From sequence record SRR2962707_3290: DNA of 37,238 bases; one strand, given 5' to 3'. Positions 5,477-21,284 of the stretch are shown in pieces; within the stretch, counting starts at the first letter, position 1; each line of letters opens with the position of its first letter. A program made the position numbers and the translations under genes. The notes under the pieces were generated by a model. It saw only the letters and a program-made list of their open reading frames with translations. It was not told the origin of the DNA and did not search any database.

Positions 5477-6553
5477 ATGACTGCTATTACCCTGGCGAAA
5501 ATCGAGAAAAGATTTGGCGGCCCACGCGGTGTTCTCGTGCTCAACGACCTCGACCTGGCGGTAAAGGAAGGAGAGTCCTACGTTCTGCTCGGGCAGTCAG
5601 GTTGCGGCAAGACAACTACGCTTCGCATGATGGCGGGCCTGGAAGTGCCCACCGGCGGCGAAATGGGTTTCAGCGGAACCCCTGTTTATTCGCAACGCGA
5701 GCGACTCTGGCTTCCCCCTGAACGCCGCCCCATCGGCATGGTGTTCCAGTCCTATGCCCTCTGGCCAACCATGACGGTCAGGCAAAATGTCCGCTTCACC
5801 CTTGAGCGCGGGCGAACACGGCTATCACGCCCCGAAGCGGACACGCGCACCAGGGACACACTTGAGATGATGCAGATCGGTCATTTGGCCGATCGTCGCA
5901 TTACCCAACTGTCAGGAGGACAACAGCAGCGCGTCGCGCTTGCGCGGGCCATCGCCCAGCGGCCCAGTATATTGCTGATGGACGAACCCCTGTCCAATCT
6001 GGATCCGCAGTTGCGCTCCGACGTCCGTGGCGAAATCCGCCGCCTCTGCAAATCCTTGGGAACGACGGCGGTGATCGTTACCCATGACCGGGACGACGCG
6101 CTTGGCCTCGCCGATCGGGTTGGAGTGATGGAAGGCGGCAAGATCCTGCAGCAGGCGGCGCCATCGGAAGTGATGGGCGCCCCGAGCTCGCTGTTCATCG
6201 CCCGATTGTTCGGAGAGATGAACACATTGGGGGGCCAGGTCGCTTCGCTCAAGGGTGAAGATGCCGTTGTTGCTTGCACGGGTGGTGGCCGGTTTTCCGT
6301 GAAACGGGCGGCATGGATGAAAGAGGGGCAATTGGTCGTCCTCGGCGCCCGCCCGGCAAGCCAGTTCTTCGCGTCCGAAGGCGTGCCGGGAACGATCGTC
6401 GAGAGCCATCTGGAAGCTCAAATGCATCGCAACAAGGTCGATGTTGGGGATGCAGTGATGACGATCTACCACGAAGGCGATGCATTGCCGGTTGGCGAAC
6501 GCGTTAACATCGCAACCAAGCCTCAAGGCTGGATGCCGTTTCAGGCCCGTTGA
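5477..6553 (+). CDS. ABC ATP-binding protein (FbpC/PotA-like)
   Basis: Walker A GQSGCGKT, LSGGQQQR, LLMDEP, H-loop VTHD, C-terminal TOBE-like region. Confidence 0.92.
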   Translation: MTAITLAKIEKRFGGPRGVLVLNDLDLAVKEGESYVLLGQSGCGKTTTLRMMAGLEVPTGGEMGFSGTPVYSQRERLWLPPERRPIGMVFQSYALWPTMTVRQNVRFTLERGRTRLSRPEADTRTRDTLEMMQIGHLADRRITQLSGGQQQRVALARAIAQRPSILLMDEPLSNLDPQLRSDVRGEIRRLCKSLGTTAVIVTHDRDDALGLADRVGVMEGGKILQQAAPSEVMGAPSSLFIARLFGEMNTLGGQVASLKGEDAVVACTGGGRFSVKRAAWMKEGQLVVLGARPASQFFASEGVPGTIVESHLEAQMHRNKVDVGDAVMTIYHEGDALPVGERVNIATKPQGWMPFQAR

Positions 6554-6563
6554 TCGCGGGTCG

Positions 6564-7166
6564 CTATTTGTAGGTGTAGCCGAAAGACAGGTCGAACGCT
6601 GTTTCGGACAGCGGGTGGTTCTGGACAACAGCGTTCTTGAGCCACAACCGCCCATGAACTTGCGTGGACGCGAAGTCCGCTTCATGCTCGAAATGGGCCT
6701 GATTGGCCCACAGGCCGCCCAAAAGCTCGGCGCCGGTAAACTCGATCGGGGCCTTTATCCGCACAGCGTCGAAGGCAAAATTGCCGTAGCTGGTGATGGC
6801 CGAGAAGTCCCCGCCAGCATCGAGGTGCGCGCCATCGAAACGGGCAATGCCGCGAAACTCGGCACCCGAAAAAACAGCGGGCCCGGCAAAGCGGCTGCCA
6901 TCGAAGCGGGCATCATTGAGAAACATGGAGCGGATGAAATCGGTCGCGTCATCGAACCTCACCCCGGTGAACCAGCTCAACCCCTCCAGCCGTGCGCCGC
7001 TGAAATCGACTGGCGCGCGAAAGCGCGTTCCGCTCAGATCGAACCCGGACAGCACGCATCCGGAAAGATCGAGCGGCTCCGCGATATCGAGGTCGCGAAG
7101 ATCATGGGCTTCGCCGTGGCGCCATGGCGTGAGCAGGCGTTCGCGGATATCGGCGGCGGATGTCAT
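6564..7166 (-). CDS. Pentapeptide-repeat (beta-helix) protein
   Basis: About 11-residue periodic F-x-G-A-x-F repeats (DFSGARL, RFDGSRF, VFSGAEF, RFDGAHL, EFTGAEL); ATGA overlap with the flavodoxin stop. Confidence 0.8.
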   Translation of the reverse strand: MTSAADIRERLLTPWRHGEAHDLRDLDIAEPLDLSGCVLSGFDLSGTRFRAPVDFSGARLEGLSWFTGVRFDDATDFIRSMFLNDARFDGSRFAGPAVFSGAEFRGIARFDGAHLDAGGDFSAITSYGNFAFDAVRIKAPIEFTGAELLGGLWANQAHFEHEADFASTQVHGRLWLKNAVVQNHPLSETAFDLSFGYTYK

Positions 7167-7627
7167 GCTGCCTCCTCGCGACGCGCCTCCATCTGGCGCA
7201 CGACGTCTTCCGCCCACGGCAACGCCAAATCCTCGGGCATATCGCTGCCCGAGGCGTCGTGGGTGATGCGCTCGCCGACCTGTTGCGCGCCGGCCGAGGT
7301 CATCAACTCTTCGAGGCGCTTGCCACCGAAGTTGTAGGTTTCGGGATATTCGCTATCGCCCATGCCGAACACCGCGAAGGTGATAGACGAGAGATCGGGC
7401 TGCGCGTCGGCCATCTTTTCGCCGAACGGGATGGCCGAAGCGGGCAAGTCCCCATCGCCATATGTCGAGGTGACGAGAATGTAGAAATTGTCGGCGTCGA
7501 ACGCGTCGGGTGCGAAATCGCTCAAATTGGTCACCTCCACCTCGTGGTCGGCAAGGTGAGCGGCGATGTCTTCGGCCAACATTTCGGCATTGCCGGTTTC
7601 GGTTCCGTAGAGGATGGCGATCTTCAT
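7163..7627 (-). CDS. Short-chain flavodoxin (MioC/cindoxin-like)
   Basis: FMN loops YGTETGNAE, TSTYGDGD, GMGDSEY; very acidic; TGATG overlap with the reductase. Confidence 0.92.
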   Translation of the reverse strand: MKIAILYGTETGNAEMLAEDIAAHLADHEVEVTNLSDFAPDAFDADNFYILVTSTYGDGDLPASAIPFGEKMADAQPDLSSITFAVFGMGDSEYPETYNFGGKRLEELMTSAGAQQVGERITHDASGSDMPEDLALPWAEDVVRQMEARREEAA

Positions 7628-8847
7628 CACTGCATTCCTTTCTGGCGTGCAAGGTCGAGCATCTGGTTGCGGCCGCGAATCTTGATGCGGCACCGGTCGG
7701 CTGGGCAGTCGGTGCGCTCGGCGGCATCGATGCGCTGCCAGCCGTGATAGTCGGTGGCGTGGGGTACTAGCTGAGCAAGGCCATCGCGGCCGGGCCGCGC
7801 TGACCGGACGGAAGCCAGGGCAGCGGCAATGCGGGCGGCGACGGCCTGGGCGTCGGCGCGATTTTCGGGAATGGTGCCGCGAGGCCCGCGGCGGAACCAG
7901 CCGGTTGCATAAAGACCGGGCTCGATGAACCCATCTTCGGAAGCTTCGGGCGAGGGGACATCCTCACTGCCGGCAAAGCCGATGGCGGTCAAAAGACTGT
8001 CGCACGGCAAGACAAGCGTTTCTCCCGAACCGTCAGTCGCCGTGAAATGCGCCTCTTGAAGCTGTTGGTCGCCGGTCAGCCTGGCTGGTGTCCAGCCAAA
8101 GCGGAAGGTTATGGTTTTTTGCGCATCCTGGGGATCATGGCCGTCTATGGCGGCAAGTGCCTCGACGACTTTTCCCTCTCCGGCGGCTGAGACGACCTTT
8201 ATGCGGGCATCGGTCAGCTTGGCGAGCTCGCGCAGCATGACGGGATCGAATTTCGCCACACCAGCCGGGGAACGGCCGATGATGTCGATGCTCTCCACAC
8301 TGGCGCTGCGAAAGCCATTAAGATGGTGGCCGCCCAGATCGGAGCCTTCGAACTCGCCATCGACTTTGGCAAGGATGCGGACCAGATCGATGGCGACATT
8401 GCCATTACCGATAATGACCGCCTTGCGACCTAGTCCGATCGCGTCATTTTCAGTGTCGGGATGGTCGTTCCAATACCGGGTAATGCGTCCCGCGCCGATC
8501 ACGCCGGGAAGGTCCTCGCCCTCGATACCCAAGGCGCGATCCTGCGACAGGCCAGTGGCCAGGACCACAGCGTCATATTGCGCGCGCAGATCGGCGAGTG
8601 CGATGTCGCGCCCCAGGGCGACATTGCCAAAAAAGCCCACGCCGCTGCGCTCGAAGAGACGTTCGAACTGACGTGTCACGGTCTTGGTGCCCTGATGGTC
8701 CGGGGCAACGCCATATCGGATCAAGCCGTAAGGGACCGGCAGACGGTCGATGATATCGATGCAGGCTTCGGGCAGCGCCTTGCCGAGAGCTTGTGCTGTG
8801 TAACAGCCCGACGGGCCGGCGCCGACGATGGCGATGGACGGCATCAT
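7627..8847 (-). CDS. Flavodoxin/ferredoxin-NADP+ reductase, adrenodoxin reductase (FprA) family
   Basis: IAIVGAGPSG, GLIRYGVAPDH, IIGNGNVAID, GWFRRGPRGTI; ATGA overlap with the ALDH stop. Confidence 0.9.
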   Translation of the reverse strand: MMPSIAIVGAGPSGCYTAQALGKALPEACIDIIDRLPVPYGLIRYGVAPDHQGTKTVTRQFERLFERSGVGFFGNVALGRDIALADLRAQYDAVVLATGLSQDRALGIEGEDLPGVIGAGRITRYWNDHPDTENDAIGLGRKAVIIGNGNVAIDLVRILAKVDGEFEGSDLGGHHLNGFRSASVESIDIIGRSPAGVAKFDPVMLRELAKLTDARIKVVSAAGEGKVVEALAAIDGHDPQDAQKTITFRFGWTPARLTGDQQLQEAHFTATDGSGETLVLPCDSLLTAIGFAGSEDVPSPEASEDGFIEPGLYATGWFRRGPRGTIPENRADAQAVAARIAAALASVRSARPGRDGLAQLVPHATDYHGWQRIDAAERTDCPADRCRIKIRGRNQMLDLARQKGMQ

Positions 8848-10343
8848 GCACCCCCGTCCGGCCAGCGCGCCCATGGGTGGGGCTTGCCGGTCAGATCAAC
8901 GTAAACCGATTTCTGGGCCATATAGGCGCGGATGCCGTCCCTGCCTTTTTCGCGTCCGGTGCCGGAATCCTTTTCGCCGCCAAAGGGTGTCGAGACGGAA
9001 AACTGCTTGTAGGTGTTGACCCAGACGGTTCCGCTGGTAATGGCGCGGGCAATGCGCCAGGCCTTGGGGAAATCGCGGGTCCAGACGCCACAGGCCAGCC
9101 CGTAATCATTGTCGTTGGATTGGGCGATCAATTCGGCTTCGTCATCGAACGGCAGCACGCACAGGACCGGACCGAATATCTCCTGACGGCAGATTTCTGC
9201 GTCGTTGGTCACGCCGGCGAGTATGGTGGGCAGATAATAGGCGCCCTTGGCGTACTGATCGCCGTGGGGTATCGCGCCGCCGCAAAGGATCTCGGCACCA
9301 GCCTCGACCGCCGCCGCCACTTGGCTGGCCACAGCGTCGCGGTGATCGAAATGAACGAGCGGGGCCACTTGCGTGCGCTCGTCGAATGGGTCGCCAACCA
9401 CCAGTGCCTTGGTCGCCTCGACAAGGCGCGCAACAAAACTGTCGTAGATCGAGCGCTCGACGAACAGGCGCGAGCCGGCGATGCAGCTTTGGCCACTCGA
9501 CGAAAAAACGCCGAACAGAACGCCGGCGATGGCCAGGTCGATATCGGCATCTGCAAAGACGATGGTGGGGGACTTGCCGCCGAGTTCGAGCGAAATCGGC
9601 ATCAGCTTTTCCGCTGCCTGTCGCGCCAGCATACGGCCCGTTTCAGTGCCGCCGGTAAAGCTGACCCGCGAAATCGCACGATGCTCGACCAGCAGATTGC
9701 CCACCTCGCGGCCGGCGCCCGGGAGAACCGAAAACAGTCCTTTGGGCAGACCGGCCGCCTCGATGATGCGCGCCAGTTCGAGCGAAACCAGCGGAGACCA
9801 AGATGCAGGCTTGAGCAGCACTGCATTGCCCGCTGCAAGTGCGGGCGCCACCTTCTGGGCATCCGATGCAATCGGGGAGTTCCACGGCGTGATCGCCGCG
9901 ACAAGTCCCAGCGGCTCGTGGATCGAGAGAGAAAGATAATCGCCACGCGGCGCCGTCAGCGCATCATCGAGGCTCTCCAGAGCGCCCGCATAATAGCGGA
10001 ACGTACCCGCGGCCGATGCGACAAGCGCCGTCGTCTCCCGCAGCGTCTTGCCGGTGTCGCGCGTCTGGATATGGGCAATGCGAGCAGCGTTGTTTTCGAT
10101 GCCTTCGGCAATGCGATAGAGGTAGCGGGCGCGTTCATGGGGCTTGAGATTGCGCCAGGCCGGATCGGCCTGCGCCCGAAGCGCCCGCTCTATGGCCCGC
10201 TCGCCATCGGTCCGGCTTGCACCGTTGATGACACGGTTGACCGATCCGTCGGCCGAAAAGATCGAGGCGATCTCCGCACCGGTGCCCTTTTCCCAGCTTC
10301 CGCCGATGAAAAGCTCGGCGGGCGGCAGTTCGAAATGGGTCAT
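8844..10343 (-). CDS. NAD(P)-dependent aldehyde dehydrogenase
   Basis: ITPWN, FTGGTETG, LELGGKSP, catalytic Cys in GQSCIAGSR, EIFGPV, PFGGEKDSG. Confidence 0.95.
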   Translation of the reverse strand: MTHFELPPAELFIGGSWEKGTGAEIASIFSADGSVNRVINGASRTDGERAIERALRAQADPAWRNLKPHERARYLYRIAEGIENNAARIAHIQTRDTGKTLRETTALVASAAGTFRYYAGALESLDDALTAPRGDYLSLSIHEPLGLVAAITPWNSPIASDAQKVAPALAAGNAVLLKPASWSPLVSLELARIIEAAGLPKGLFSVLPGAGREVGNLLVEHRAISRVSFTGGTETGRMLARQAAEKLMPISLELGGKSPTIVFADADIDLAIAGVLFGVFSSSGQSCIAGSRLFVERSIYDSFVARLVEATKALVVGDPFDERTQVAPLVHFDHRDAVASQVAAAVEAGAEILCGGAIPHGDQYAKGAYYLPTILAGVTNDAEICRQEIFGPVLCVLPFDDEAELIAQSNDNDYGLACGVWTRDFPKAWRIARAITSGTVWVNTYKQFSVSTPFGGEKDSGTGREKGRDGIRAYMAQKSVYVDLTGKPHPWARWPDGGA

Positions 10344-11152
10344 ATAGCCTGCTCCCGACAGCGGTTGAAGATTTCGCGTGCGACCGAATAGACGGTGGTG
10401 ACCGAGGTCTTGGGATTGTCCGGGGACGGCTTACCTTCGATCCTTACAGTGAATTCGGCGGCTGCCGAGCGGACGCTGTATTCGTGTACATTGCCGCTTA
10501 CGCCGGGGTCGGCAACAAGGCGCACCCCGGTCTTTTCGAACCCCAGCCCGGCAAGCGCCAGGGTTGCGGCGACATTGGCGTTCTTGGGGTATTGAATGGC
10601 CGCCTCGCGCGCATTCCCCGAAAAAATGACGGTTTCGACCGCGAGCGCATTGAGGTCGTGCATCTTATCGGCGGGGGTGCCTTTCCAGGCTCCTGGAGGC
10701 TTGCGTCCGGTATAACTCACGGCCTCTATCCCTGATGGCTTGAGGGCCGAGAGGACATCGATGCCGCCAATAGCGCCAGCGGGCAGGATGAACCGGGTGG
10801 ATCCGGCGCGCGCCGCGTCCAGCACCTCTTCATGCAAGGGCTGATCGGCCAGCGAGCCGATCGAGACGATGACCGTCTCGATCCCGGCGCGCAGTACGGC
10901 GGTCGCGTGCTGGCGGACGCCCTCATGGCCGGCGCATTCGACGACGAGATCAGGCATGGCGACAATCAACGCCCTCGTCTCTGCAACAACCTGCCCCTGG
11001 CCGTCGAAATCCCTGGCCAGCCGTGCCCGCGTTTCGCCCACATGGTCGGGCGTGCAAAGCACTGTGACCTTGGAGGGCTTCGCGCCTTCGTTGGCGAGTA
11101 TGCCCATCAGGGTGTGGGCAATGGTGCCGTAGCCGATCAATCCCAGATGCAT
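10340..11152 (-). CDS. nadX: L-aspartate dehydrogenase family protein
   Basis: GLIGYGTIA, VVECAGH, GAIGGID, GRKPP, YPKNANVAA, NVHE, NPKTS; alternative TTG start at 11161. Confidence 0.88.
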   Translation of the reverse strand: MHLGLIGYGTIAHTLMGILANEGAKPSKVTVLCTPDHVGETRARLARDFDGQGQVVAETRALIVAMPDLVVECAGHEGVRQHATAVLRAGIETVIVSIGSLADQPLHEEVLDAARAGSTRFILPAGAIGGIDVLSALKPSGIEAVSYTGRKPPGAWKGTPADKMHDLNALAVETVIFSGNAREAAIQYPKNANVAATLALAGLGFEKTGVRLVADPGVSGNVHEYSVRSAAAEFTVRIEGKPSPDNPKTSVTTVYSVAREIFNRCREQAI

Positions 11153-11157
11153 GCCGA

Positions 11158-12831
11158 TCAAACCTTGTTGCCGGCAGCGCCCGCCGGAGGGCCTGAAAAA
11201 CTCTCGGCAAACGGACCGATGGCGATCATGTCCACTTCGATAAGCTGGGGACCTTCGGCGGCCAGCGCGGCATCAAGGACACCAGCAAACTCGGAAACGG
11301 CGCCAACCTTGTGGTGCGGCATGCCGATTGCAGCGCAATGGGTGGCAAAATCGGGGGTGTGCAGGGCCGAATAGTAATGACGGCTATCGTACTGGGCGTC
11401 CTGGATGTTGCGGATGACGCCATAGGCCTGGTCGTTCATCAGCACGTAAACGAGCGGCGCTTTCTCCTCGACTGCGGTGATCATTTCGGCGATCCCGAGC
11501 TGGGTACCTCCGTCACCGAGCAGCGTGATCGCCTTGGCGGATTTGGACGCTATTGCCGCGCCGATGCCCATTGCAACGCCCTGGCCGATGCCGCCGCCCA
11601 GCGCATGCACGCCGTGACAGGGCTCGGCAATCTTGACGTAACGGTTGCCGAACGTTGAGTTCGAGATCGTTACGTCGCGCACCCAGGGATGCCCGCCCGG
11701 TGTCACCCGCTCGAGCAGAGCGTCGGCGATGGTGCTGTACGGTCCCATGGCCGCGCGCATCGTGCCCTCCCCGCGGGCGCGGGTGTTGGCAATGTCGAAG
11801 ACGAGGTTGGGATCGACCGAGAGCTTTTCCGGCAGGCGGTCGAGCAGGCGTTGCAGCGTGTCGGCTGCATCGCCGTGAACGAAAAGATCCACCGGATAGT
11901 TGCGGCCGCCCTGATAAGCGTCGGCATCGATCTGGATAAGGGGACGCGGCAAACGCATAGTGTTGTTGAGCGTCTCGTTGCCGCGCAGCCTTGAGCCGAC
12001 GACGATCATCAGGTCGATGGTTTCGTACAGCGCCTGGCTCTCGGGCGCCATATTGAAGGCGCCCAGATTGGCCGGATTGTCCTCCGAGACCGTGGCGCGG
12101 CCATTTGTGGAGGTGACCGCTGCAAAGCCGCGTTCCACGAGTTCTGTAGCTTGCCTGCTTGCGTTGCGGGCGCCCCCGCCCAACCAGATCATCGGACGCC
12201 GGGCGCCGATAACGAGCTGGGCCAGTTCGTCGATGACGGCATCGCTGGCCAGTGGGTTCTGCGGCGAAAGGGCAAAAGCGCGCGTCGAAGGCGGCGCTGC
12301 CATACGCTGGACGTCAACGGGGATTTCAAGGCTCACCGGGCCCGTGGGCGCGCTGATGGCGGCGTTGATGGCGGCGGTCAGCGTTCCAATGGCGCTCTTT
12401 GCGTCCCACAACCGATAATAGGCCTTGGAAATACCCTTGAGCATGTCGGGCTGGCGCGGAACATCGTGGATCGGCGCCCTGTCGCGGTCCATGAACTGGG
12501 TATCGACGGTTGCCGTGATGTGAAGCAGCGACGTGCCGGCGGTCAACGCTTCAACCTGCGCGCCGGCGGCATTGCCCGCTGCGGTACCCGTCGAAGTCAT
12601 CACAACGCCAAGTTTGCCCGAAACGCGGGCGTAGGCATCGGCCATGTTCATGGCGCCGGCCTCGCCGCGCGCCGGAACAAAACGCACGCGGCCCTGACGC
12701 GCCAGCGCATCCAGGATCGGCATGTTGTGGATGGAGATAACCCCGAAGATCACCTCGACGCCGATGTCGGCGAGATAGGCGGCAATGAAATCACCGACGG
12801 TCTCGTGGCGTGTGACTTGTTCCAGTTTCAT
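11158..12831 (-). CDS. Thiamine diphosphate-dependent enzyme (decarboxylase/ALS-like superfamily)
   Basis: Conserved Glu in RGEAGAMNMADAYAR; ThDP motif GDGG...MNDQAYG; alternative start at 12843. Confidence 0.9.
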   Translation of the reverse strand: MKLEQVTRHETVGDFIAAYLADIGVEVIFGVISIHNMPILDALARQGRVRFVPARGEAGAMNMADAYARVSGKLGVVMTSTGTAAGNAAGAQVEALTAGTSLLHITATVDTQFMDRDRAPIHDVPRQPDMLKGISKAYYRLWDAKSAIGTLTAAINAAISAPTGPVSLEIPVDVQRMAAPPSTRAFALSPQNPLASDAVIDELAQLVIGARRPMIWLGGGARNASRQATELVERGFAAVTSTNGRATVSEDNPANLGAFNMAPESQALYETIDLMIVVGSRLRGNETLNNTMRLPRPLIQIDADAYQGGRNYPVDLFVHGDAADTLQRLLDRLPEKLSVDPNLVFDIANTRARGEGTMRAAMGPYSTIADALLERVTPGGHPWVRDVTISNSTFGNRYVKIAEPCHGVHALGGGIGQGVAMGIGAAIASKSAKAITLLGDGGTQLGIAEMITAVEEKAPLVYVLMNDQAYGVIRNIQDAQYDSRHYYSALHTPDFATHCAAIGMPHHKVGAVSEFAGVLDAALAAEGPQLIEVDMIAIGPFAESFSGPPAGAAGNKV

Positions 12832-12852
12832 AATGGCTTCCATTGACTGGTA

Positions 12853-13641
12853 TCAGATGTGACGGGCGAGACCGCCCGAAACATCGAGTTGCGCGCCTGT
12901 GATGTAGCTGGCGGCATGTGAGCCCAAAAAGGCGATTGCGGCTGCGGCTTCGCTTGGGTCGCCCAGGCGCCCGAGCGGGATGCCCTTCTTGCGGGCCAGA
13001 TTGCCGTACCACTCCTCCCGGCTCATAGACTGGTCCTCGCGTTCGGCGAAACGGCGCGTCCATTGGCCAGAGCCAACCAGGCCGAGCAGAACGGAATTGA
13101 CGCGCACCTCGGGTGCCAACTCGAGACTGAGAGATTTGAGCAGGTTCTGCACCCCGGCACGGGCCGATGAGGTGCAGACCATGTGCGGCTCGGGCTGATA
13201 GGCCAGCAGCGAATTGACAGCGACGATGGCCCCTTTGGACTGCCGGAGCATGGGCACGAAAGCGCGGATCGGATAGATTTGGCTGAACATTTTGAGTTCG
13301 TACTCGGCCCGCCATGCCTCGTCTGTCGTTTCCTCAAACGTCGAGATGCGGCCCTGTCCGGCATTGTTGACCAGAAGATCGCATCGTCCAAAACTGGCTT
13401 CGACATCCGCCGCGAATGCGTTGACGGCATCGGAATCGAGCACCGAGAAAGCGCGGGAAATTATCCGGTCGGCGCCGTGATCGCGCGCCAGCACCGAGAC
13501 GACGTCCTTGAGGCGTCCTTCACCGCGGGCGCAAAGTGCGACGCGGGCGCCCTGTGAAAGCAGGAGCTCGACAGTGGAAAGGCCGATGCCCGACGATCCG
13601 CCGGTCACCACCGCCACCCGTGCTTCGTAAGGCAGCGTCAT
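12853..13641 (-). CDS. SDR oxidoreductase with non-canonical active site
   Basis: TGGSSGIG, NNAG, VRVNSV, ASYITG; YxxxK position reads TSSAR. Confidence 0.88.
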   Translation of the reverse strand: MTLPYEARVAVVTGGSSGIGLSTVELLLSQGARVALCARGEGRLKDVVSVLARDHGADRIISRAFSVLDSDAVNAFAADVEASFGRCDLLVNNAGQGRISTFEETTDEAWRAEYELKMFSQIYPIRAFVPMLRQSKGAIVAVNSLLAYQPEPHMVCTSSARAGVQNLLKSLSLELAPEVRVNSVLLGLVGSGQWTRRFAEREDQSMSREEWYGNLARKKGIPLGRLGDPSEAAAAIAFLGSHAASYITGAQLDVSGGLARHI

Positions 13642-14558
13642 GGCTGGGTTCCTTTAAGCTCGGGAAAGCCGGGATCGGGGCGGCCCTGCATGACGGCGCG
13701 CTGGGCGCTGGTCGGAGGGCCGGCGGTCATCCACTGATCCATCTTCTCTGGCACGTCGCGCGGCCAAACCTGAGCTTCGTGCGTGTGCTCGTCGATCTGC
13801 TGGATTTCCGAGGTGAATTCGATCACGAATCCCGACGGAGAGACATAGTAAGCGAAAGGATTGTCGCCCGGACCATGGCGTCCCGGTCCCCAGGTGGGAT
13901 GCAGACCCTTTTCCTTCATACGGCCGATGGAGCGCATGAATTCGTTGATCGAGGGTAACTCGAATGCAACGTGATTGACCGATGCGTAGTGGCCGCGCAC
14001 AAGCGCGATGGAGTGATGGTCGGTGGCGCAGCGCAGAAAGACCATCTGGTCCGCCGAATAGTCGGAAACGCGGAAACCGAGCACGTCCACGTACCATTGT
14101 TCCACGCCGTCCATGTCGCCGCTGTTGAGCACGACATGGCTGACCTTGCGCGGACGGGCCCACTCTTCCTTGGCCTCTGCGGCTTCCGCGCCGGTGCGAA
14201 AGCGCAGGCGACGCAGGTCGGGATCGAGCACTTCAAAGCCGTATCCGCCGGCAAAATCGTCGAACTCGGCAGGCTCGCTCAGGGCCGTCGCGCCCTTGGC
14301 AACAACCTGGCGATGGAGCGCGTCCATCGAGGCCCGGTCGGGCATCGAGAAATGCACGTATTCGATGCCGTACACCGGACCATCCTTGAGGCCGTACACA
14401 AACGGCTCATCGCCGGTGCCCCGGAAATAGACGGCGCCGTCCTCTTCCCTAGCGATGGTCAGGCCCCAGTTGTTTTCATAAAAACCCTTGGTGGCGGTAA
14501 TGCCCGGCGCACGCATGACGATGCCACGCAGGGCACCAACGCGAATCGGTTCGCTCAT
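13638..14558 (-). CDS. VOC-fold type I extradiol ring-cleavage dioxygenase
   Basis: Two VOC modules; metal and catalytic residues in SHVVL, DHHS, NHVAFE, GRHGPGDNPFAYYVSPSGFVIEF. Confidence 0.85.
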   Translation of the reverse strand: MSEPIRVGALRGIVMRAPGITATKGFYENNWGLTIAREEDGAVYFRGTGDEPFVYGLKDGPVYGIEYVHFSMPDRASMDALHRQVVAKGATALSEPAEFDDFAGGYGFEVLDPDLRRLRFRTGAEAAEAKEEWARPRKVSHVVLNSGDMDGVEQWYVDVLGFRVSDYSADQMVFLRCATDHHSIALVRGHYASVNHVAFELPSINEFMRSIGRMKEKGLHPTWGPGRHGPGDNPFAYYVSPSGFVIEFTSEIQQIDEHTHEAQVWPRDVPEKMDQWMTAGPPTSAQRAVMQGRPDPGFPELKGTQP

Positions 14559-15400
14559 CTGACGTCTCCCAATTGTGCAGTGTCGCCCTCAGGAAGGGCA
14601 TTTCCGATCGTTGAAACGAGAACTGCCGCCAGCGCGGCGGGCGCCTGGCGGTGTATGGCGTGGCCGGCATGGGGCACGAGTACGTATTCGCCGCGCACTC
14701 TCGCATCGAGCGCGTCGAACGCGGCCTGCGACTGGGCCGGTGGCGTGACGACATCATCAGCGCCGACGATGACCGAAGTGCGCGCTCGAACGCCGGTGCA
14801 GTCGGTGGCAAGATTGCCCGACGCCAGCATGCGGACCGCCTGTCCGTAGCCTGGCATTGTGACCTTCTCCATGTCCGAGCGCACCGCAGAAACGATGGCA
14901 GGATTGCGTTCAGGTGCATAGACGAGACGGGGAGCGCGCGCAGCGGCAAATTCCTGCGCGCCCAGCGCTTCCAGGTCACCCAAGCGCTGGGCATCCTTTT
15001 CCGAAAGTGCTCCACCCCTGGGCGTGCCACGTCCCTGAGCGCACGACGCAAGCGTGAGACTGGCGACACGCTCGGGGTATCGGGTGGCGAAAGCAGCACC
15101 CATGAGGGTGCCCAGCGAATGTCCGAGAATGTGGACCCGGCCAAGGCCAAGGCTGTCACAGAGCGCAGCGATCGCTGCTGCATAGTCCTCGGCTAGGGGC
15201 CATTCGACCTCCAGCGGCTCGCTCTTTCCGTAGCCGGGCGCGTTCCAGCAGATAACGCGCAGATCGGTGGGCAGGTAGGCCAGAAGATCATCGAACGTGG
15301 AGGCCATCGACCCGATGCCATGCAGGCAGACCAGAACGTCGCCGCTGCCGGGTCGCTCCTGCCATTCTATAGCGCTGGTGAGGATGGGGTTCATGGTCAT
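14555..15400 (-). CDS. Alpha/beta-fold hydrolase
   Basis: LHGIG oxyanion motif, GHSLG nucleophile elbow, GADDVVT, AGHA. Confidence 0.9.
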   Translation of the reverse strand: MTMNPILTSAIEWQERPGSGDVLVCLHGIGSMASTFDDLLAYLPTDLRVICWNAPGYGKSEPLEVEWPLAEDYAAAIAALCDSLGLGRVHILGHSLGTLMGAAFATRYPERVASLTLASCAQGRGTPRGGALSEKDAQRLGDLEALGAQEFAAARAPRLVYAPERNPAIVSAVRSDMEKVTMPGYGQAVRMLASGNLATDCTGVRARTSVIVGADDVVTPPAQSQAAFDALDARVRGEYVLVPHAGHAIHRQAPAALAAVLVSTIGNALPEGDTAQLGDVR

Positions 15401-16152
15401 CAGGAAAAACAGAAGCCGTGGTTGACGGGCAGAACCTGCCCGGTGAGGGTGATCGCATCATTTGAGACGAGGAAAGCCGCCACGCCCGCGGCCTCGCCGG
15501 TTCCCTGCGGACCGGGAACGGCGCGGCCTTCGGAATACAGAAGGTGGCGCGCCTCGGGCACGTATTCGGTGCTTTCGGTCTGCAAAATGCCCGGCGCAAT
15601 GCAGGCCACTCCAATACCGTCCGGGCCCAGTTCGCGTGCCAGCGAGCGGGTCATGGCCATCACGGCGCCCTTTGAGGCCGTATAGGAAAGAAGCCGCGGG
15701 GCGCCCCAAAGCGCGGTGTCGGACGCCACGTTGACGATACGCCCGCTGCCCGAAGCCCGCAGCAGATCGGCGCAGGCGCGCGTGATGAGCCAGGTGCCGC
15801 GCACATTGACCGTCATGACGCGGTCCCACAGCGCAAGCTCGATGTCTTCAAAGCCCATGCCACCCACATTTGTCGCAACGGCGGCGTTGTTGACCAGGCC
15901 ATGCAGATGGCCCTCGCGGGCCAAAATATTTTCGGCCAGGGCGGCAATGCTGTCGGGATCGGCAAGGTCGAGCGGAATGAAGCGCGCCTGTGCGCCATTT
16001 TCGGTCAGTGCCGCACACGTCGCCTGACCGCCCGCGGCGTCGACGTCGGCCAGCACAAGGCTCGCCCCCTGCGCGGCGATGGCCTCCGCGATGGCACGGC
16101 CCAGCCCGCGTGAAACGCCGGTAACGAGAACGGTGCGGCCCTTGAGCATCAT
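15400..16152 (-). CDS. SDR oxidoreductase (classical)
   Basis: TGVSRGLG, NNAA, catalytic YTASK. Confidence 0.92.
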   Translation of the reverse strand: MMLKGRTVLVTGVSRGLGRAIAEAIAAQGASLVLADVDAAGGQATCAALTENGAQARFIPLDLADPDSIAALAENILAREGHLHGLVNNAAVATNVGGMGFEDIELALWDRVMTVNVRGTWLITRACADLLRASGSGRIVNVASDTALWGAPRLLSYTASKGAVMAMTRSLARELGPDGIGVACIAPGILQTESTEYVPEARHLLYSEGRAVPGPQGTGEAAGVAAFLVSNDAITLTGQVLPVNHGFCFS

Positions 16153-17189
16153 TGGGCCGCTACCTGGGCCAGTTCGGCTTCAACCTGCTCCTTGGCGGCG
16201 CGCGTCAGAATCTGGCGGATCCGGCTGACGCCAAGATCGTGCTGGTAGAGCATTTCGCGCTTCCGGGCATCGTCTGGCATGCCTTCGAGCATGACGCGAT
16301 CCTGCTCGAGCACGTTCCAGTGACGCTCCTCGAGCTCGGCGCGATAGAGGAAGCGCCAGGATTCGCGGGCGATACCCTCGACCTTGCGCATGCGCCAGAA
16401 AAAGACCTTGCAGCTATGCTCGTCGATCGGTGTCACGAAACCCACGATACGCATATTGCCGCCCGGACCTGCTGCCGGAGGATAGGGAATGTCGAGGAAA
16501 CAATAGCTGTTGCCGGGATGAACTGCGAACTCGGCCCAATCGAAATTGTCGCCGACCTGACCGACACGCGTCACGTGAAAGCCATGCTCGGTCTTGTCGA
16601 GCTTCATCAGATCCTGTTTGGAGCCGTAAGCCAGCGTGAAGCTCTCGGAGTGCAGATAGCACCCGTGCATCGGGTCAGCGAGGTTGTCGAGGGCATAGCG
16701 GTAGTTGGTTTCCCAGATGGCCGTGCACAAAAACCCCGCCCAGGCGTCGTCGGCGAATTCGGGCGGTAGAACCAGTTCCGGCGGTTCCGGCTGGTTGACC
16801 GAAGGCATATAGACAAAGACTGCGTCATTGGCCTCGCGCACATGGAAATTGTTCAGCGCCTTCCGGCCCTCAAGCGCGCATTCGGGCATGGCAGGAACAC
16901 GGACCACGACGCCATCGCCGTCGACGACCACCCCGTGATAGCGGCAGCCAATATTGCCTTCGTGGATTTCGCCGTAAGACAAGGGAGCGCCACGGTGAGG
17001 GCAGAAATCGTCAACTGCGTTGATCTTCGCGTCCTTGCCGCGCCAGAGCACGATTTTCTGGCCCAGGAGCTTGGCGCCATAGGGACGGGAGGCTTTGACC
17101 TCGACCGACTTGGCCACCGGATACCACTGGCCCTGTAAACCGGAATTGACCCGGGATTCGATGAGCGCCTTCTTGTCGACGACTGTCAT
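16149..17189 (-). CDS. Rieske non-heme iron oxygenase, alpha subunit (VanA/TsaM-like size, no beta subunit in window)
   Basis: Rieske CPH...CRYH; mononuclear Fe motif NLADPMHGCYLH; distal Asp in EQD; 346 aa. Confidence 0.92.
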   Translation of the reverse strand: MTVVDKKALIESRVNSGLQGQWYPVAKSVEVKASRPYGAKLLGQKIVLWRGKDAKINAVDDFCPHRGAPLSYGEIHEGNIGCRYHGVVVDGDGVVVRVPAMPECALEGRKALNNFHVREANDAVFVYMPSVNQPEPPELVLPPEFADDAWAGFLCTAIWETNYRYALDNLADPMHGCYLHSESFTLAYGSKQDLMKLDKTEHGFHVTRVGQVGDNFDWAEFAVHPGNSYCFLDIPYPPAAGPGGNMRIVGFVTPIDEHSCKVFFWRMRKVEGIARESWRFLYRAELEERHWNVLEQDRVMLEGMPDDARKREMLYQHDLGVSRIRQILTRAAKEQVEAELAQVAAQ

Positions 17190-17255
17190 GTGTTCGCTCC
17201 AGACTGTGAGGGAGTTCCAAAGCGGGAGGGACCGACGGCCCCTCCCCGGGGCTTG

Positions 17256-17825
17256 TTAGCCGGCGACCTTGTTTTTCGCGGGCCGCGAGATTTTGGAAAC
17301 CGGATGATCCTCGGGATATGTCGGGGTCACCGGCTTGGGATTGCCGATCATCACGCACATCAGGGCTTCTTCGATGCCCTCATTGCGCAGGCCGCGATAA
17401 AGACCGGCAGGCACCGAGATGATGTCGCGCTCGGCCAGGACGGTTTCGACAAGCTCGCCCTTGTGCTCGATAAAGAGGCGGATTTTGTTCCCCTTGAGGA
17501 TGAAGAACACTTCCTCGGCGTCACGGTGAATGTGGAGCGGACCCTCGCAGCCGGCAGGCAGCACCATGGTGGAGAAGGTGAAGTTTTCGGCCGGAACCAC
17601 GTTCTCGTCGTCGGTGATGCCGGTTGCGCCAGTGCCGATGTAGCGCATCTGGGCACGGCGGTAGATAGGATCGTAATCGGCTTGGAATTTCAGGGCATCC
17701 CAATCGATCGTCCGGGTTTCGTAGCGGGCGACGCGACTTTCAATCCACTCGGAAAGCGACTTGCCTTCGGGAATCATCACGTCATCGGGCTCGATCGACG
17801 GGAATTTCTTTGGCGCTACAGACAT
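17256..17825 (-). CDS. Cupin domain protein
   Basis: GPLHIHRDAEEVFFILKG and DIISVPAGLYR cupin motifs; ATG at 17825 with AGGAGA RBS. Confidence 0.85.
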   Translation of the reverse strand: MSVAPKKFPSIEPDDVMIPEGKSLSEWIESRVARYETRTIDWDALKFQADYDPIYRRAQMRYIGTGATGITDDENVVPAENFTFSTMVLPAGCEGPLHIHRDAEEVFFILKGNKIRLFIEHKGELVETVLAERDIISVPAGLYRGLRNEGIEEALMCVMIGNPKPVTPTYPEDHPVSKISRPAKNKVAG

Positions 17826-17998
17826 CAATGTCTCCTGTGCTGACGGTTCGGAAAGGTTTGAAGGAAAAAGCGGGTGAGGCCCGGGGGTGTGCAGCGAGCC
17901 GAGCGGGCACGGGCTGGCGCAAGCCATTCCGTCAATCCCTTTTCACGCGTCTCTCTGACGATCGAAAACATCGAACGAACCCCTTTTCCGTGCCATAC

Positions 17999-18051
17999 TG
18001 TTCAAATATACACGTTGTGTTCATAATTACGCATAAGCTAATCTCTGTCAA
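17999..18051 (-). promoter_or_regulatory. Promoter/operator of the catabolic operon (copy 1)
   Basis: TTGACA (18051-18046)-N17-AATTAT; tandem TGTTCA boxes at 17999 and 18018; 33/36 identity to copy 2. Confidence 0.75.
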
Positions 18052-18104
18052 GCGGCGCGCATTGCCCGTGCACCGGCTATGGATTATGAAAAAGGAAAAG
18101 ACGT

Positions 18105-18935
18105 ATGGGTGGAGTTGCCCGAGTGACCGACGATATGACCGAGATCGAAGCCGAAAGCGCACAGGGCCCGTCCTATTCTGTGCCCCCCGTTCACCGCGCT
18201 TTTCGGCTGCTCCGGCACATCGCCGCGGGCGGGCGCTGCCGCAATGCGGCCGCCACGGCCCGCGAGTTGGGCATCAACAGAACGACGCTGATACGCCTCC
18301 TGCATACGCTCGAAGAGGAGGGAATCATCGAATCCGATGATGACGGCGCGAGCTGGCAGTTGGGCGTGGGGATGATTTCCCTCGCTGCGGATGCGCTCAA
18401 GTCCCGCGACGTGACGCGGGTTGCGCAGCCCGTTATGGCAAGGCTTGCCAGCGAGCTGCACCTGTCCATCCATCTGGGCGTGCTCGACGGACGCGACGTC
18501 GTCTATATGTTGCGCGAAACACCCAATTCGCACCTGATCAGCAATATTCGTGAGGGATCGCGCCTGCCGGCCCACGCCACCACCATCGGCCGTATCCTCC
18601 TGGCCTATATGCCGGAAAAACAGCTGCTCGATCTCTACAGGGACGCCGACCTTGAGGCCCATACCGCCAAGACGTCGACCACGTTGACCCAGCTCATCAT
18701 GCAGATCGGTGAAGACCGCAAGCACGGCATCGCCTGGAGCAAGGGCAATTTCGAGCCGGGAATCGGCTCCTGTGCGGCCGCAATTTTCGACCACCGCGCT
18801 CGTCCCATAGCCGGTATCAACGTTACGGGACCCGAAGAGCAGTTCAGCGCCTACAGCAACAATGCCCAGCATATCGAGGGCGCCATCAAGGCAGCTGCCG
18901 CGGAAATTTCCAGGGGCCTGGGCTACCAGGGTTAG
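18105..18935 (+). CDS. IclR family transcriptional regulator
   Basis: SVPPVHRAFRLL, RTTLIRLLHTL, GSRLPAHATTIGRILLA, GIGSCAAAI. Confidence 0.93.
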   Translation: MGGVARVTDDMTEIEAESAQGPSYSVPPVHRAFRLLRHIAAGGRCRNAAATARELGINRTTLIRLLHTLEEEGIIESDDDGASWQLGVGMISLAADALKSRDVTRVAQPVMARLASELHLSIHLGVLDGRDVVYMLRETPNSHLISNIREGSRLPAHATTIGRILLAYMPEKQLLDLYRDADLEAHTAKTSTTLTQLIMQIGEDRKHGIAWSKGNFEPGIGSCAAAIFDHRARPIAGINVTGPEEQFSAYSNNAQHIEGAIKAAAAEISRGLGYQG

Positions 18936-19036
18936 CCCCGCGAACCTTCAATAAAATCCAGTCGATAGCGCGCGCCCGGCACTCTCCATAGTGCCGGCGT
19001 TGCTGCTTTTGCGAGCACGACCGTCCACAGGTCGCC

Positions 19037-19089
19037 TTGACTTCGTTGTGACGATGCGTAATTATGAACACTACGTTGATATTTGAACA
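19037..19089 (+). promoter_or_regulatory. Promoter/operator of the transporter-monooxygenase operon (copy 2)
   Basis: TTGACT (19037-19042)-N17-AATTAT; 19054-19089 is the reverse complement of 17999-18034 with 3 differences. Confidence 0.75.
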
Positions 19090-19112
19090 CATCGGACGCA
19101 GAGGGGAACCGC

Positions 19113-19415
19113 ATGGATGTTTTCAAGGACCGGCTCTCGCAGAGGGCCAAGGACACCACGCGTGCGGAACTGGCGCACCAGTCCCTTGGCCGCAACCTGA
19201 CGGGAAGCGAAAAGGCCCTGGCGGTCGCGCTGATGGACATTATGGCGGCCCCGCAACACGACTACGCGCAGATCGCCGCCGAAATGACCAAGCGCGGCAT
19301 CACAGCCCCGGCCTCGGGCCGGACCGACTGGGACGCGGCGCTCCTCGAAAAGGAGTTGAGCACCCTCAACAAAAATCTGGACGAGGCATATGCGGAAAAC
19401 GGCTATGGCGCTTGA
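19113..19415 (+). CDS. Small (100 aa) helical protein resembling recombinase-like HTH domain proteins
   Basis: GAGGGG RBS; 'YAQIAAEMTKRGITAPASGRTDWDAALL' resembles the recombinase DNA-binding pattern IA..L...G...P.G..W; overlaps the ATPase start. Confidence 0.65.
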   Translation: MDVFKDRLSQRAKDTTRAELAHQSLGRNLTGSEKALAVALMDIMAAPQHDYAQIAAEMTKRGITAPASGRTDWDAALLEKELSTLNKNLDEAYAENGYGA

Positions 19416-20181
19416 GTTCCGCGGGGTCGAAAAGCAGTTCGGAAACGACAAGTCCGGCACCGAGGTCCTGACTGCGGTCAAGGACATCAACTTTACGGTC
19501 AAGCGCGGAGAGTTCGTGTCGGTGGTTGGCCCCTCGGGCTGCGGCAAGAGCACGATTCTGAGCATGACGGCCGGGCTCTATAAGCCCACAAAAGGCGAGG
19601 TGCTGGTGAGCGGGGAGACAGTTGTCGGCCCCAACTCGCACGTAGGTTTCATGCTCCAGAAAGACCTGCTGCTGCCCTGGCGTTCCATCGTCAAGAACGT
19701 GGAATTCGGGCTCGAGGCCAGGGGCGTTCCGGCCAGAGCGCGCCGCGAGCGCGCCATGGCCGAACTCGAACGCTGTCACCTCAAAGGCTTCGAGAACCAT
19801 TATCCCTACCAGCTGTCGGGCGGAATGCGGCAGCGCGCTGCCCTGGCCCGCACGTTGGCGATCGACCCCGACATCATCCTGCTCGATGAGCCATTCTCCG
19901 CTCTCGACGCCCAGACCAAGCTGCTGATCCAGAACAGCTTTGCCAAGACCATCCAGGATGCGGGCATCACCACGCTGCTGATTACCCACGACCTGTCGGA
20001 AGCCGTCATCATGTCCGACAGGGTGTTGGTCCTGTCCGAGCGGCCCGGCACCATCATTCACGAGCTTTCTGTCGATATCCCCGACAGAGGACAACCCCTG
20101 GCCCGGCGGCAGGTGCCGCAGGTCCACGGTTATGCTGCGCAGATTTTCGATCTGCTCAAACTCAATGAGCGAGCCGCCTGA
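19405..20181 (+). CDS. NitT/TauT-type ABC ATP-binding protein
   Basis: GPSGCGKS, LLPWRS, LSGGMRQR, LLDEPFSALD. Confidence 0.93.
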   Translation: MALEFRGVEKQFGNDKSGTEVLTAVKDINFTVKRGEFVSVVGPSGCGKSTILSMTAGLYKPTKGEVLVSGETVVGPNSHVGFMLQKDLLLPWRSIVKNVEFGLEARGVPARARRERAMAELERCHLKGFENHYPYQLSGGMRQRAALARTLAIDPDIILLDEPFSALDAQTKLLIQNSFAKTIQDAGITTLLITHDLSEAVIMSDRVLVLSERPGTIIHELSVDIPDRGQPLARRQVPQVHGYAAQIFDLLKLNERAA

Positions 20182-20215
20182 GGGGGTGGACGCAAAATAA
20201 AAGGAAGGACCATCA

Positions 20216-21193
20216 ATGAACCGCGCCTCACTTTCGCTGCTGCTGGCCGGCAGCATCGCCCTTTCGGCAAGTGCCGTCCAAGGGCAGGAGAGCTTGACCT
20301 ACCTCTTCCCGGCACCGGACTTTCTCCCCGCCTTCGCGCCCTTCCAGCTGGCGCTCCACAAAGGCTACTACGAGGAAGAAGGGCTAGACGTCGAGTTCCG
20401 CGTCGGCCAGGGCGGTGCGGACGTCGCCACCCAGATCGCCGTCGGCAATGTGGACATGGGCGGCGGCATGGGCGACACGGCCATGATCGTGCGCCCCAAC
20501 GGGCTTGAAGTGCGCGGTGTCGCGCTGCTCGGTGGCAAGGGGCTGACCCACATCGCCTGGCGCAACGACAGCGGCATCGAAAGCGTCGCCGATCTCGAAG
20601 GCGAGTCCATCGCCGTGATCAGCTTTCAGGACACCGCCTATTACAACCTGCTTGCCGTGCTGGCCGGCGAGGGCATTGGCCGTCCCGATGCCGACATTCA
20701 GGCGCTCGGTTCAGGCGGGCTTATCCAGGCCATGATCGCCGACGGCGTGCAGGCCATGTCGGGCGTGCCCGAATGGATCGTGAGCATCCAGGATGCCGGC
20801 GTGGACCTGACAGTCATGCCTGTGAGCGATCTGTTCCCGGCGCAGCCGCAGGCCATCATTGCGTCCGATCAGTTCATCGCGGAACACCCCGACCAGGCCG
20901 CGGGCTTCGTGCGTGCGACGCTGCGTGCAATCGAAGACATCGTTGCCGATCCCGCGGCCGCCGCGCAGGAATATGTGGGCTTCGTGGACCAGCATGCCGA
21001 GAACGTCGAGCAGATCGAGCGCGTCATGCGGTTCTACGTCGAGAGCGTCTATGCCGAGATGGATGGGCTGCCGCGCGGCGCGTTCAACGAGGAGCAGCTC
21101 CTCGAAATCCAGGATTTCTATATGGCCAACGACATCATCACCGAAGCGGTGCCGATCGAGGACGTCTATACCAATCAGTTCGTGACCGAATAG
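20216..21193 (+). CDS. NMT1/THI5/SsuA-type ABC substrate-binding protein
   Basis: Signal peptide; 'ALHKGYYEEEGLDVEF', C-terminal YTNQFV; AAGGA RBS. Confidence 0.88.
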   Translation: MNRASLSLLLAGSIALSASAVQGQESLTYLFPAPDFLPAFAPFQLALHKGYYEEEGLDVEFRVGQGGADVATQIAVGNVDMGGGMGDTAMIVRPNGLEVRGVALLGGKGLTHIAWRNDSGIESVADLEGESIAVISFQDTAYYNLLAVLAGEGIGRPDADIQALGSGGLIQAMIADGVQAMSGVPEWIVSIQDAGVDLTVMPVSDLFPAQPQAIIASDQFIAEHPDQAAGFVRATLRAIEDIVADPAAAAQEYVGFVDQHAENVEQIERVMRFYVESVYAEMDGLPRGAFNEEQLLEIQDFYMANDIITEAVPIEDVYTNQFVTE

Positions 21194-21206
21194 CAGACCC
21201 TGCGCT

Positions 21207-21237
21207 GTCGCGGCCTTGCCATCGGCAGGGCCGCGGC
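21207..21237 (+). other. Intergenic stem-loop after SBP gene
   Basis: GCGGCCTTGCC-ATC-GGCAGGGCCGC stem, no U tract. Confidence 0.5.
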
Positions 21238-21284
21238 CTTCGGGCGCGATGCGCCCATCCTCACCTGTTTCAAGGGCAGCAAAA

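Follow-up and report, generated by a model that had tools for sequence, protein, structure and literature searches.

The electron-transfer partners of Rieske oxygenases are the basis on which these enzymes are classified and engineered, and the established classes draw on either an iron-sulphur (Fe-S) reductase domain or a ferredoxin. Two-component enzymes served by a VanB- or phthalate-dioxygenase-reductase-type (PDR-type) partner constitute Batie class IA, three-component systems of the class IIB/III style combine a reductase of the glutathione-reductase (GR) type with a Rieske-type ferredoxin, and the arylamine N-oxygenase PrnD, fed by the flavin:NADH reductase PrnF, offers a precedent for a supply free of Fe-S clusters. 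Among cytochromes P450, the chain of P450cin from Citrobacter braakii runs through cindoxin reductase, a flavin adenine dinucleotide (FAD) enzyme resembling adrenodoxin reductase (AdR), and cindoxin, which carries flavin mononucleotide (FMN); likewise, the RDX-degrading XplB/XplA system joins an AdR-like reductase to a flavodoxin-P450 protein (XplA structures 2wiv and 4ep6). The present study concerns a reductase-flavodoxin gene pair of this P450 type, located at positions 7163..8847 of a 37,238-nucleotide stretch of sequence record SRR2962707_3290 (the whole stretch hereafter being called the window), where it lies within an operon encoding a Rieske oxygenase.

We consider it probable, with moderate confidence, that the pair is the electron-transfer module of the operon's Rieske oxygenase, in a chain leading from NAD(P)H through FAD and FMN to the Rieske [2Fe-2S] cluster and the mononuclear iron. 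The case is built on gene context: the identities of the proteins, the coupling of their genes, their co-inheritance, their exclusivity with respect to other electron modules, the replacement of one module by another in the same slot, and the segregation of the pair with the Rieske gene were all observed. The arrangement is real and conserved, and would amount to a Rieske oxygenase whose partner pair is of the P450 type and free of Fe-S clusters. The three genes concerned are the following.

16149..17189, minus strand: alpha-only VanA/phthalate-type Rieske non-haem-iron oxygenase (Pfam Rieske 1.2e-22, VanA_C 2.1e-15)
7627..8847, minus strand: FprA/adrenodoxin-reductase-type FAD flavoprotein, 406 aa (Pfam Pyr_redox_2; 1lqt, E 5.6e-51)
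7163..7627, minus strand: short-chain cindoxin-like FMN flavodoxin, 154 aa (Pfam Flavodoxin_1 3.6e-28)

The closest solved relative of the reductase is FprA of Mycobacterium tuberculosis (1lqt, E 5.6e-51), matched end-to-end with residues 5-397 against chain positions 6-451, and bovine adrenodoxin reductase (1cjc, E 6e-46) is matched over the N-terminal half. The dinucleotide motifs GAGPSG and GNGNVAID align with GSGPSA and GNGNVALD of FprA, and the GVAPDH and GW.RRGP.G segments are identical or conservative; we take these segments, of the general form GVAPDH and GW(I/F)(K/R)RGP.G, to lie around the flavin. At residues ~190-195 the sequence GRS stands in place of the GRR of FprA, whose Arg-Arg pair presumably binds the 2'-phosphate of NADPH, and given this substitution the enzyme may accept NADH. 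The flavodoxin matches Flavodoxin_1 over profile positions 1-143 and has no long-chain insertion, its best solved relative being cindoxin (4oxx, E 5.5e-27, residues 2-145), followed by MioC. Across 34 orthologues, its FMN-loop motifs GTETGN, S.YG.G.LP and FG.GD are invariant. The same holds, again in 34 orthologues, for the Rieske cluster ligands C63/H65 and C82/H85 (Cys-x-His and Cys-x-x-His) and, together with other catalytic-domain residues, for the D168-x3-D172-x2-H175-x4-H180 motif of the oxygenase, which we take to comprise the iron ligands. No small-subunit-like (beta) open reading frame (ORF) is present in the operon, consistent with an alpha-only oxygenase. A predicted complex of two Rieske copies with the flavodoxin, FMN and 2Fe-2S scored 0.14 and 0.01 against a mark of 0.34, and counts neither way.

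Reductase and flavodoxin are genes 10 and 11 of a 12-gene operon and are joined by a TGATG overlap, in which the reductase stop TGA (7629-7627) shares a nucleotide with the flavodoxin ATG (7627-7625). On either side the junctions read ATGA: the TGA of the preceding aldehyde dehydrogenase (ALDH) gene lies at 8846-8844 and the reductase ATG at 8847-8845, while the flavodoxin stop (7165-7163) overlaps the ATG of the following pentapeptide-repeat gene at 7166. A first-pass annotation of the window had described an operon-borne Rieske alpha subunit together with an FprA/AdR-family reductase coupled through TGATG to a short-chain flavodoxin, and the Pfam Rieske and VanA_C domains, the 1lqt and 4oxx matches and the 7629-7625 junction bear out these identifications. 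Its further statement, that the window holds no VanB/PDR-type reductase, [2Fe-2S] ferredoxin or P450, agrees with both searches made here. Pfam scans of 82 window ORFs (13 operon ORFs and 69 gene-like ORFs of at least 55 aa passing a codon-position GC filter) returned no Fer2, Fer4, FAD_binding_6/NAD_binding_1 or p450 domain, and six-frame tblastn over the 37 kb gave no match to VanB-type, PaaE-type, Rieske-ferredoxin or GR-type reductase probes, to two [2Fe-2S] ferredoxin probes or to a P450 probe. An Fe-S partner encoded with the oxygenase, on which the established Rieske classes are defined, was found neither in the window nor in the 46 pair-bearing loci described below; a P450 encoded with the pair, which would mark the P450 class, was found neither in the window nor in 80 orthologous loci.

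A scan for Rieske orthologues, with one genome per species, confirmed 250 loci, and the gene content of the best 80 of these 250 was scored by tblastn; the source names of the homologues are generic only. FprA and flavodoxin genes lie downstream in 45 of the 80 loci, always adjacent and mostly overlapping, and in one more locus FprA is followed by the contig end. Another 18 loci end before the operon does and are not judgeable for the pair, which is present in 46 of the 62 judgeable ones. VanB, PaaE, Rieske-ferredoxin and GR-reductase probes matched none of the 80 loci by tblastn, and no P450 homologue was found in them with the P450 of G001, the nearest genome, as query. The first-pass annotation had suggested checking whether the pair and VanB-type genes exclude each other, and the comparison came out in its favour: the pair and Fe-S reductases never occur together, either in the 80 alphaproteobacterial loci or in nine homologous clusters from other classes.

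A quick maximum-likelihood tree of the Rieske proteins placed all 47 pair-bearing rows (the 46 loci and the window) in one clade (SH-aLRT 96), which also includes 12 rows from loci ending early and no pair-less row. A second clade (SH-aLRT 99) is formed by 14 loci, here termed type B, in which a short-chain dehydrogenase gene (SDR1) and a pentapeptide-repeat gene follow the Rieske gene directly, the lower pathway lies nearby in another orientation and the pair is absent. A third (SH-aLRT 98) comprises L082-L084, of which L083 and L084 have the type-A layout and run through to the pentapeptide gene without the pair. Since the pair-bearing clade, which spans families of the Rhizobiales and Rhodobacterales, mixes Phyllobacteriaceae, Brucellaceae, Rhizobiaceae, Methylobacteriaceae, Paracoccaceae and Roseobacteraceae, the operon moves between lineages with its pair. 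In Pararhodobacter oceanensis (L064), whose only Rieske orthologue lies in the order Rieske-SDR1-hydrolase-FprA-flavodoxin-pentapeptide protein, the orthologue of the operon's extradiol dioxygenase (71% identical) is on another contig. One type-B locus, L094, comes from a record titled Anaerolineales MAG (metagenome-assembled genome) and groups in the Paracoccaceae/Roseobacteraceae clade beside L085 and L086; this contig is probably mis-binned, or else recently transferred.

More distant clusters were sought with the marker NF005470 for the operon's thiamine-diphosphate (ThDP) enzyme, which exceeded the family cut-off in 14 of the 401 genomes sampled from the phylum, and 13 regions were examined. 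Nine of them, from other classes, carry the same gene set at 37-69% identity, with no match to FprA or the flavodoxin. Five of the nine encode a VanB-type reductase, with NAD_binding_1 and Fer2 domains in L126, L127 and L128 and a Fer2 domain in L129 (Pfam), the fifth, in L130, being seen by tblastn only (PaaE probe, 26% identity over 88% coverage); in L128, L129 and L130 this gene directly follows the Rieske gene. Of the others, L125 has a Rieske-type ferredoxin (Pfam), with no reductase identified in its 19.9 kb; L131/L168 combines a Rieske ferredoxin (tblastn, 58% to that of L125) with a Pyr_redox_2/Reductase_C reductase (Pfam); and L133/L169 has a Rieske ferredoxin (tblastn), L132 sharing the synteny of the L131 and L133 clusters. 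No cluster holds two kinds of electron module. As judged from these gene sets, the pathway draws on at least three kinds of electron module, and in the alphaproteobacterial clade the slot would be filled by FprA together with the flavodoxin.

Outside the operon the pairing is rare in the samples. Flavodoxin homologues (E <= 1e-12) occur in 77 of the 401 genomes of the phylum sample, and among the best 29 flavodoxin loci other than the window only one, in G328, has an adjacent FprA. There the FprA (41% identical to that of the window) and the flavodoxin (45%) precede a P450 that, among solved structures, best matches XplA (E 5.3e-93), the triad spanning L200:8917-11821. This sole other adjacent pair flanks an XplA-like P450, in agreement with the earlier annotation's remark that such pairings are known from P450 systems. 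Flavodoxin and P450 appear to be separate genes in G328, with matches in different frames, and not an XplA-type fusion; the genome has 51% GC and belongs to another class. In the five operon-bearing genomes inspected, the operon flavodoxin was the best Flavodoxin_1 match in all five and the sole match in two.

The closest flavodoxins outside the operon (50-52% identical) are found in three Rhodobacterales-type genomes, after a boxB-sized gene without Pfam match. A CoA ligase, a BoxC-like enoyl-CoA hydratase and an HTH-shikimate-kinase-like regulator surround flavodoxins of 36-52% identity in these and similar clusters (L201:7521-9478; L202:9048-11084; L203 ~9425-9856, tblastn only; L205:9449-9913), and in L201 and L202 the flavodoxin directly follows a gene of 482-521 aa without Pfam match. 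From their gene content these could be read as box clusters, in which the flavodoxin may stand in place of BoxA.

Several observations weigh against the proposed assignment. The pair is missing in 16 of the 62 judgeable loci, namely the 14 of type B together with L083 and L084, and L137 also lacks it. Within the scanned regions no linked substitute was found in the pair-less loci; Pfam scans revealed no Fe-S partner gene near L097 or L084, and an adrenodoxin-like gene ~9 kb upstream is present in L095 and L100 only. In five genomes with pair-less loci (four of type B and that of L084) the window flavodoxin has no homologue at E <= 0.001, and the reductase matches in four of the same five are N-terminal only, at 31-36% identity. 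Fer2 matches number 10-17 in pair-less-locus genomes against 6 in G001. With neither a linked substitute nor a flavodoxin homologue, these close relatives of the oxygenase must use unlinked donors. The pair-less relatives are the main result against an obligatory link, and the oxygenase family can be served in trans. Possible trans donors exist in G001 too, in the form of two small [2Fe-2S] ferredoxins, a reductase of the thioredoxin-reductase-type (TrxR-type) FNR family and two small stand-alone Rieske proteins, and P450 genes are carried elsewhere in the genome by G001 and by all five operon-bearing genomes checked. In the one published trial found, which used chlorophyllide a oxygenase (CAO), the Escherichia coli flavodoxin/flavodoxin reductase failed with this Rieske oxygenase, and VanB, TsaB and DdmA/B worked (PMC9615114).

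Whole-genome statements on the host rest on G001, which is 98% identical to the operon over 11.5 kb. Its four Rieske-domain matches include just one of oxygenase size, that of the operon, the others being PetA and two small proteins (141 and 163 aa); its one Flavodoxin_1 match and its one FprA-family match are likewise those of the operon. The six Fer2 matches correspond to a PaaE-type reductase by PaaD, NuoG, two xanthine-dehydrogenase-family proteins and the two small ferredoxins. As the only FNR-plus-Fer2 reductase adjoins the PaaD gene, the single Rieske oxygenase of G001 lacks a dedicated VanB-type reductase. The small stand-alone Rieske proteins lie at C19:129440-129679 and C19:90771-91034 (L016, L017) and are possible trans-acting ferredoxins.

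Such genes give substance to the best-surviving rival, which we nevertheless regard as unlikely: an unlinked Fe-S ferredoxin, adrenodoxin-like [2Fe-2S] or small Rieske, would reduce the cluster, FprA acting as ferredoxin reductase and the flavodoxin being auxiliary or having another role. AdR/FprA enzymes classically reduce ferredoxins, and are so named in PDB entries 1lqt, 2c7g and 1cjc; two small Fer2 ferredoxins and two small Rieske proteins are available elsewhere in G001; and the sister clades of the oxygenase work without a linked partner. This reading is at odds with the overlap of the flavodoxin gene with the reductase stop and with the adjacency of the two genes in all 45 loci that have both. 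One of the two G001 ferredoxins, moreover, already has the TrxR-type FNR alongside, in a sulfate-assimilation context, and a ferredoxin gene has been recruited to none of the 46 pair-bearing loci.

A second rival, which seems to us decidedly improbable, keeps the pair as a unit and assigns it to another acceptor, through reactivation of the Fe(II) extradiol dioxygenase (in the manner of XylT) or supply of an unlinked P450. The known partners of such pairs are P450s, as the G328 triad illustrates, and the single P450 of G001, on another contig between clpP and a yjeF-like gene, is an orphan with no partner genes alongside; extradiol dioxygenases are known to need reactivating ferredoxins in some meta-cleavage operons. 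Tblastn of the window and the 80 loci with the P450 of G001 as query revealed no P450; the absence of P450s as an argument against a P450 acceptor was dropped, all five operon-bearing genomes having them. The split locus of P. oceanensis keeps the pair beside the Rieske gene, with the extradiol gene on a separate contig, and this segregation argues against the pair reactivating the extradiol dioxygenase. Clusters from other classes have standard Rieske-oxygenase reductases as the corresponding extra genes, several of them directly after the Rieske gene.

A third rival, which we hold to be very improbable, sees in the pair a housekeeping supply of NADPH-derived electrons through flavodoxin (to radical-SAM or stress enzymes, for instance) that merely travels with the operon. 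In its favour, genes of the FprA family are widespread: of 401 alphaproteobacterial genomes sampled, 93 have a match at E <= 1e-30 (G627, one of the 93, is unpublished). These genes are, however, at most 46% identical to the window reductase, and in the 29 loci examined no flavodoxin lies within 1.5 kb of FprA. The flavodoxin is missing from five related genomes and so is not essential, and the pair occurs in one operon clade only.

The comparative evidence supports the first-pass proposal that an NADPH-FAD-FMN chain feeds the Rieske centre; the electron-transfer steps themselves, the nucleotide (NADPH or NADH), the docking site and the substrate are inferred. In the assignment of the pair to the Rieske oxygenase, NAD(P)H would reduce the FAD of the FprA/AdR-type reductase, from which electrons would move one at a time to the FMN of the flavodoxin. 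Docked on the alpha3-type oxygenase, the cindoxin-like flavodoxin would reduce the Rieske [2Fe-2S] cluster, and the cluster in turn the mononuclear iron site at which O2 is activated. Together with SDR1, likely a dihydrodiol dehydrogenase, the oxygenase would turn an aromatic or heteroaromatic acid into a catechol-like diol, which the extradiol dioxygenase would open, the remaining genes processing the product. In evolutionary terms, a P450-type (cindoxin/XplB-like) redox pair may have been recruited once into the alphaproteobacterial version of a widespread catabolic cluster, taking the place held elsewhere by VanB-type or ferredoxin-based modules.

The operon comprises 12 genes on the minus strand, from 17927 to 6564, with spacings of -4 to +66 nt and almost no intergenic DNA, in the order cupin, Rieske oxygenase, SDR1, alpha/beta hydrolase, extradiol dioxygenase, SDR2, ThDP enzyme, aspartate-dehydrogenase-like protein, ALDH, reductase, flavodoxin and pentapeptide-repeat protein. 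Its features other than the three listed above, with the divergent regulator, are as follows.

18105..18935, plus strand: IclR-family regulator, divergent from the operon (Pfam IclR_C 2.6e-39, HTH_IclR 1.2e-9)
18023..18051, minus strand: sigma-70-like promoter consensus in the interval separating the cupin gene from the divergent IclR gene (10/12 matches)
17256..17927, minus strand: cupin, first operon gene (Pfam Cupin_2 1.9e-9)
15400..16152, minus strand: SDR1, short-chain dehydrogenase, with a 4-nt overlap with the Rieske gene (Pfam adh_short_C2 5.5e-54)
14555..15400, minus strand: alpha/beta-fold hydrolase (Pfam Abhydrolase_1 1.1e-22)
13638..14558, minus strand: two-domain extradiol (vicinal-oxygen-chelate) dioxygenase (Pfam Glyoxalase 1.1e-14)
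12853..13641, minus strand: SDR2, short-chain dehydrogenase (NCBIfam NF005468, 395 bits against a cut-off of 266)
11158..12843, minus strand: ThDP enzyme (NCBIfam NF005470, 785 bits against a cut-off of 495)
10340..11161, minus strand: aspartate-dehydrogenase-like protein (Pfam Asp_DH_C 4.7e-32; NCBIfam NF009827 above cut-off)
8844..10343, minus strand: ALDH (Pfam Aldedh 5e-163)
6564..7166, minus strand: pentapeptide-repeat protein, last operon gene (Pfam Pentapeptide_3 2.4e-24)

To our knowledge, none of the SDR, hydrolase, ThDP-enzyme, aspartate dehydrogenase and ALDH families needs a protein electron donor, which we count in favour of the Rieske oxygenase as acceptor. The promoter-like site is the only one in 6200-18300, where shuffled sequence gives 3.0 +/- 1.9, hence a consensus match only; a terminator scan was uninformative, with 17 matches against 10.2 +/- 3.6 in shuffles. 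Contigs from three RNA-library runs of one study span 5500-19500 at flat depth, convergent and divergent genes included, and DNA carry-over is possible. Some related loci have a cupin orthologue (75-85% identity) immediately ahead of the Rieske gene, and other loci have only a 30-35% identical cupin further upstream; SDR1 is always next after the Rieske gene.

From the order Rieske, SDR, extradiol enzyme, the pathway reads as dioxygenation, rearomatisation and meta-cleavage of a putative aromatic acid. The NCBIfam catechol 2,3-dioxygenase and HpaD matches of the extradiol enzyme fall below their cut-offs. Transporters fit an aromatic-acid pathway, with NMT1-type ATP-binding-cassette (ABC) systems in the window and major-facilitator-superfamily (MFS), TctC and porin genes in the other classes. 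Literature searches on the identity of the pathway found no paper. The riboflavin/lumichrome pathway was considered and rejected: the four-component Rieske system, xanthine oxidase and P450 given in the excerpted account of it do not match the operon's gene set (PMC12746152).

Further neighbours are recorded here in their own right. The flank at 19390-33800 holds three NMT1/THI5-type ABC uptake systems, together with an FAD_binding_3 monooxygenase (21958-23271) and a second IclR regulator (26195-27112), and an amidohydrolase lies at 32674-34062. Type-B loci have instead two FAD_binding_3 monooxygenases, a sulfatase and a tripartite ATP-independent periplasmic (TRAP) transporter. Hydroxylation or desulfation might thus form an upstream branch of the pathway. 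Immediately before the Rieske gene, a small gene of the HTH_62 family ('recombinase-like helix-turn-helix') stands in other-class clusters and type-B loci (L125:15803-16114; L126:3798-4118; L128:5204-5554; L097:9638-9973); in the window a weak HTH_62 match (E 3.4e-5) occurs at 19083-19415 on the plus strand, beyond the IclR gene and ahead of the ABC transporter genes. The pentapeptide-repeat protein is kept at the operon end in pair-bearing loci, and a ~33% identical one directly follows SDR1 in type-B loci, which have no reductase or flavodoxin; in pair-less loci it is seen at L097:11760-12284, L084:18120-18929 and L137:11610-12158, and it is a constant companion of this Rieske oxygenase. No function of pentapeptide-repeat proteins in catabolic operons is known to us.

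No native flavodoxin-dependent Rieske oxygenase was found in open-access full text and bioRxiv, subscription journals lying outside the search, and the Rieske partners named in the excerpted text of a 2025 review are only ferredoxins or reductases (PMC12445004). We give about even chances to a broader interpretation, in which marine and soil Alphaproteobacteria possess a distinct Fe-S-free Rieske chain, a captured P450-type pair has long been kept in one operon lineage, and, given the related flavodoxins found behind boxB-like genes, cindoxin-like flavodoxins are general donors to non-haem-iron oxygenases in these bacteria, possibly as a low-iron adaptation. Iron sparing is speculative and the saving would be modest at best, because the oxygenase keeps three iron atoms per subunit. 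If true, a native flavodoxin chain would add a class to the Rieske-oxygenase scheme, P450-type and Rieske-type redox modules would be interchangeable in nature, and biocatalysis would gain an Fe-S-free, potentially more oxygen-robust partner pair for VanA-type oxygenases. The locus further draws attention to a widespread pathway for aromatic acids that is still an orphan; assays of its first enzyme with the native partners would now be possible.

Set beside the described systems, the window shares with P450cin a split of the chain between an AdR/FprA-type FAD reductase and a short-chain FMN flavodoxin, encoded as two distinct proteins; the acceptor there is the P450 haem, whereas here the pair is embedded in a Rieske-oxygenase operon. 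XplB/XplA resembles it in an FprA-like reductase gene adjoining a flavodoxin (compare the G328 triad), but that flavodoxin serves a P450, to which it is fused in XplA, and the candidate acceptor of the window is the Rieske protein. PrnF differs in being a single flavin reductase of another family, with neither a flavodoxin nor an AdR-type enzyme involved. With three-component Rieske systems the window has in common a separate reductase and a small one-electron shuttle, and L131/L168 use exactly such a set; in those systems, however, the shuttle is an Fe-S protein and the reductase belongs to the BphA4/putidaredoxin-reductase family, whereas the window has an FMN shuttle and an AdR/FprA-family reductase. 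Batie class IA, finally, matches it in the alpha-only VanA_C-type oxygenase, and reductases with NAD_binding_1 and Fer2 domains do serve homologous clusters from other classes. The class IA reductase has its flavin domain fused to a plant-type [2Fe-2S] domain, and no such reductase is present in the window or the 80 loci; in its place the window encodes two separate flavoproteins without Fe-S motifs.

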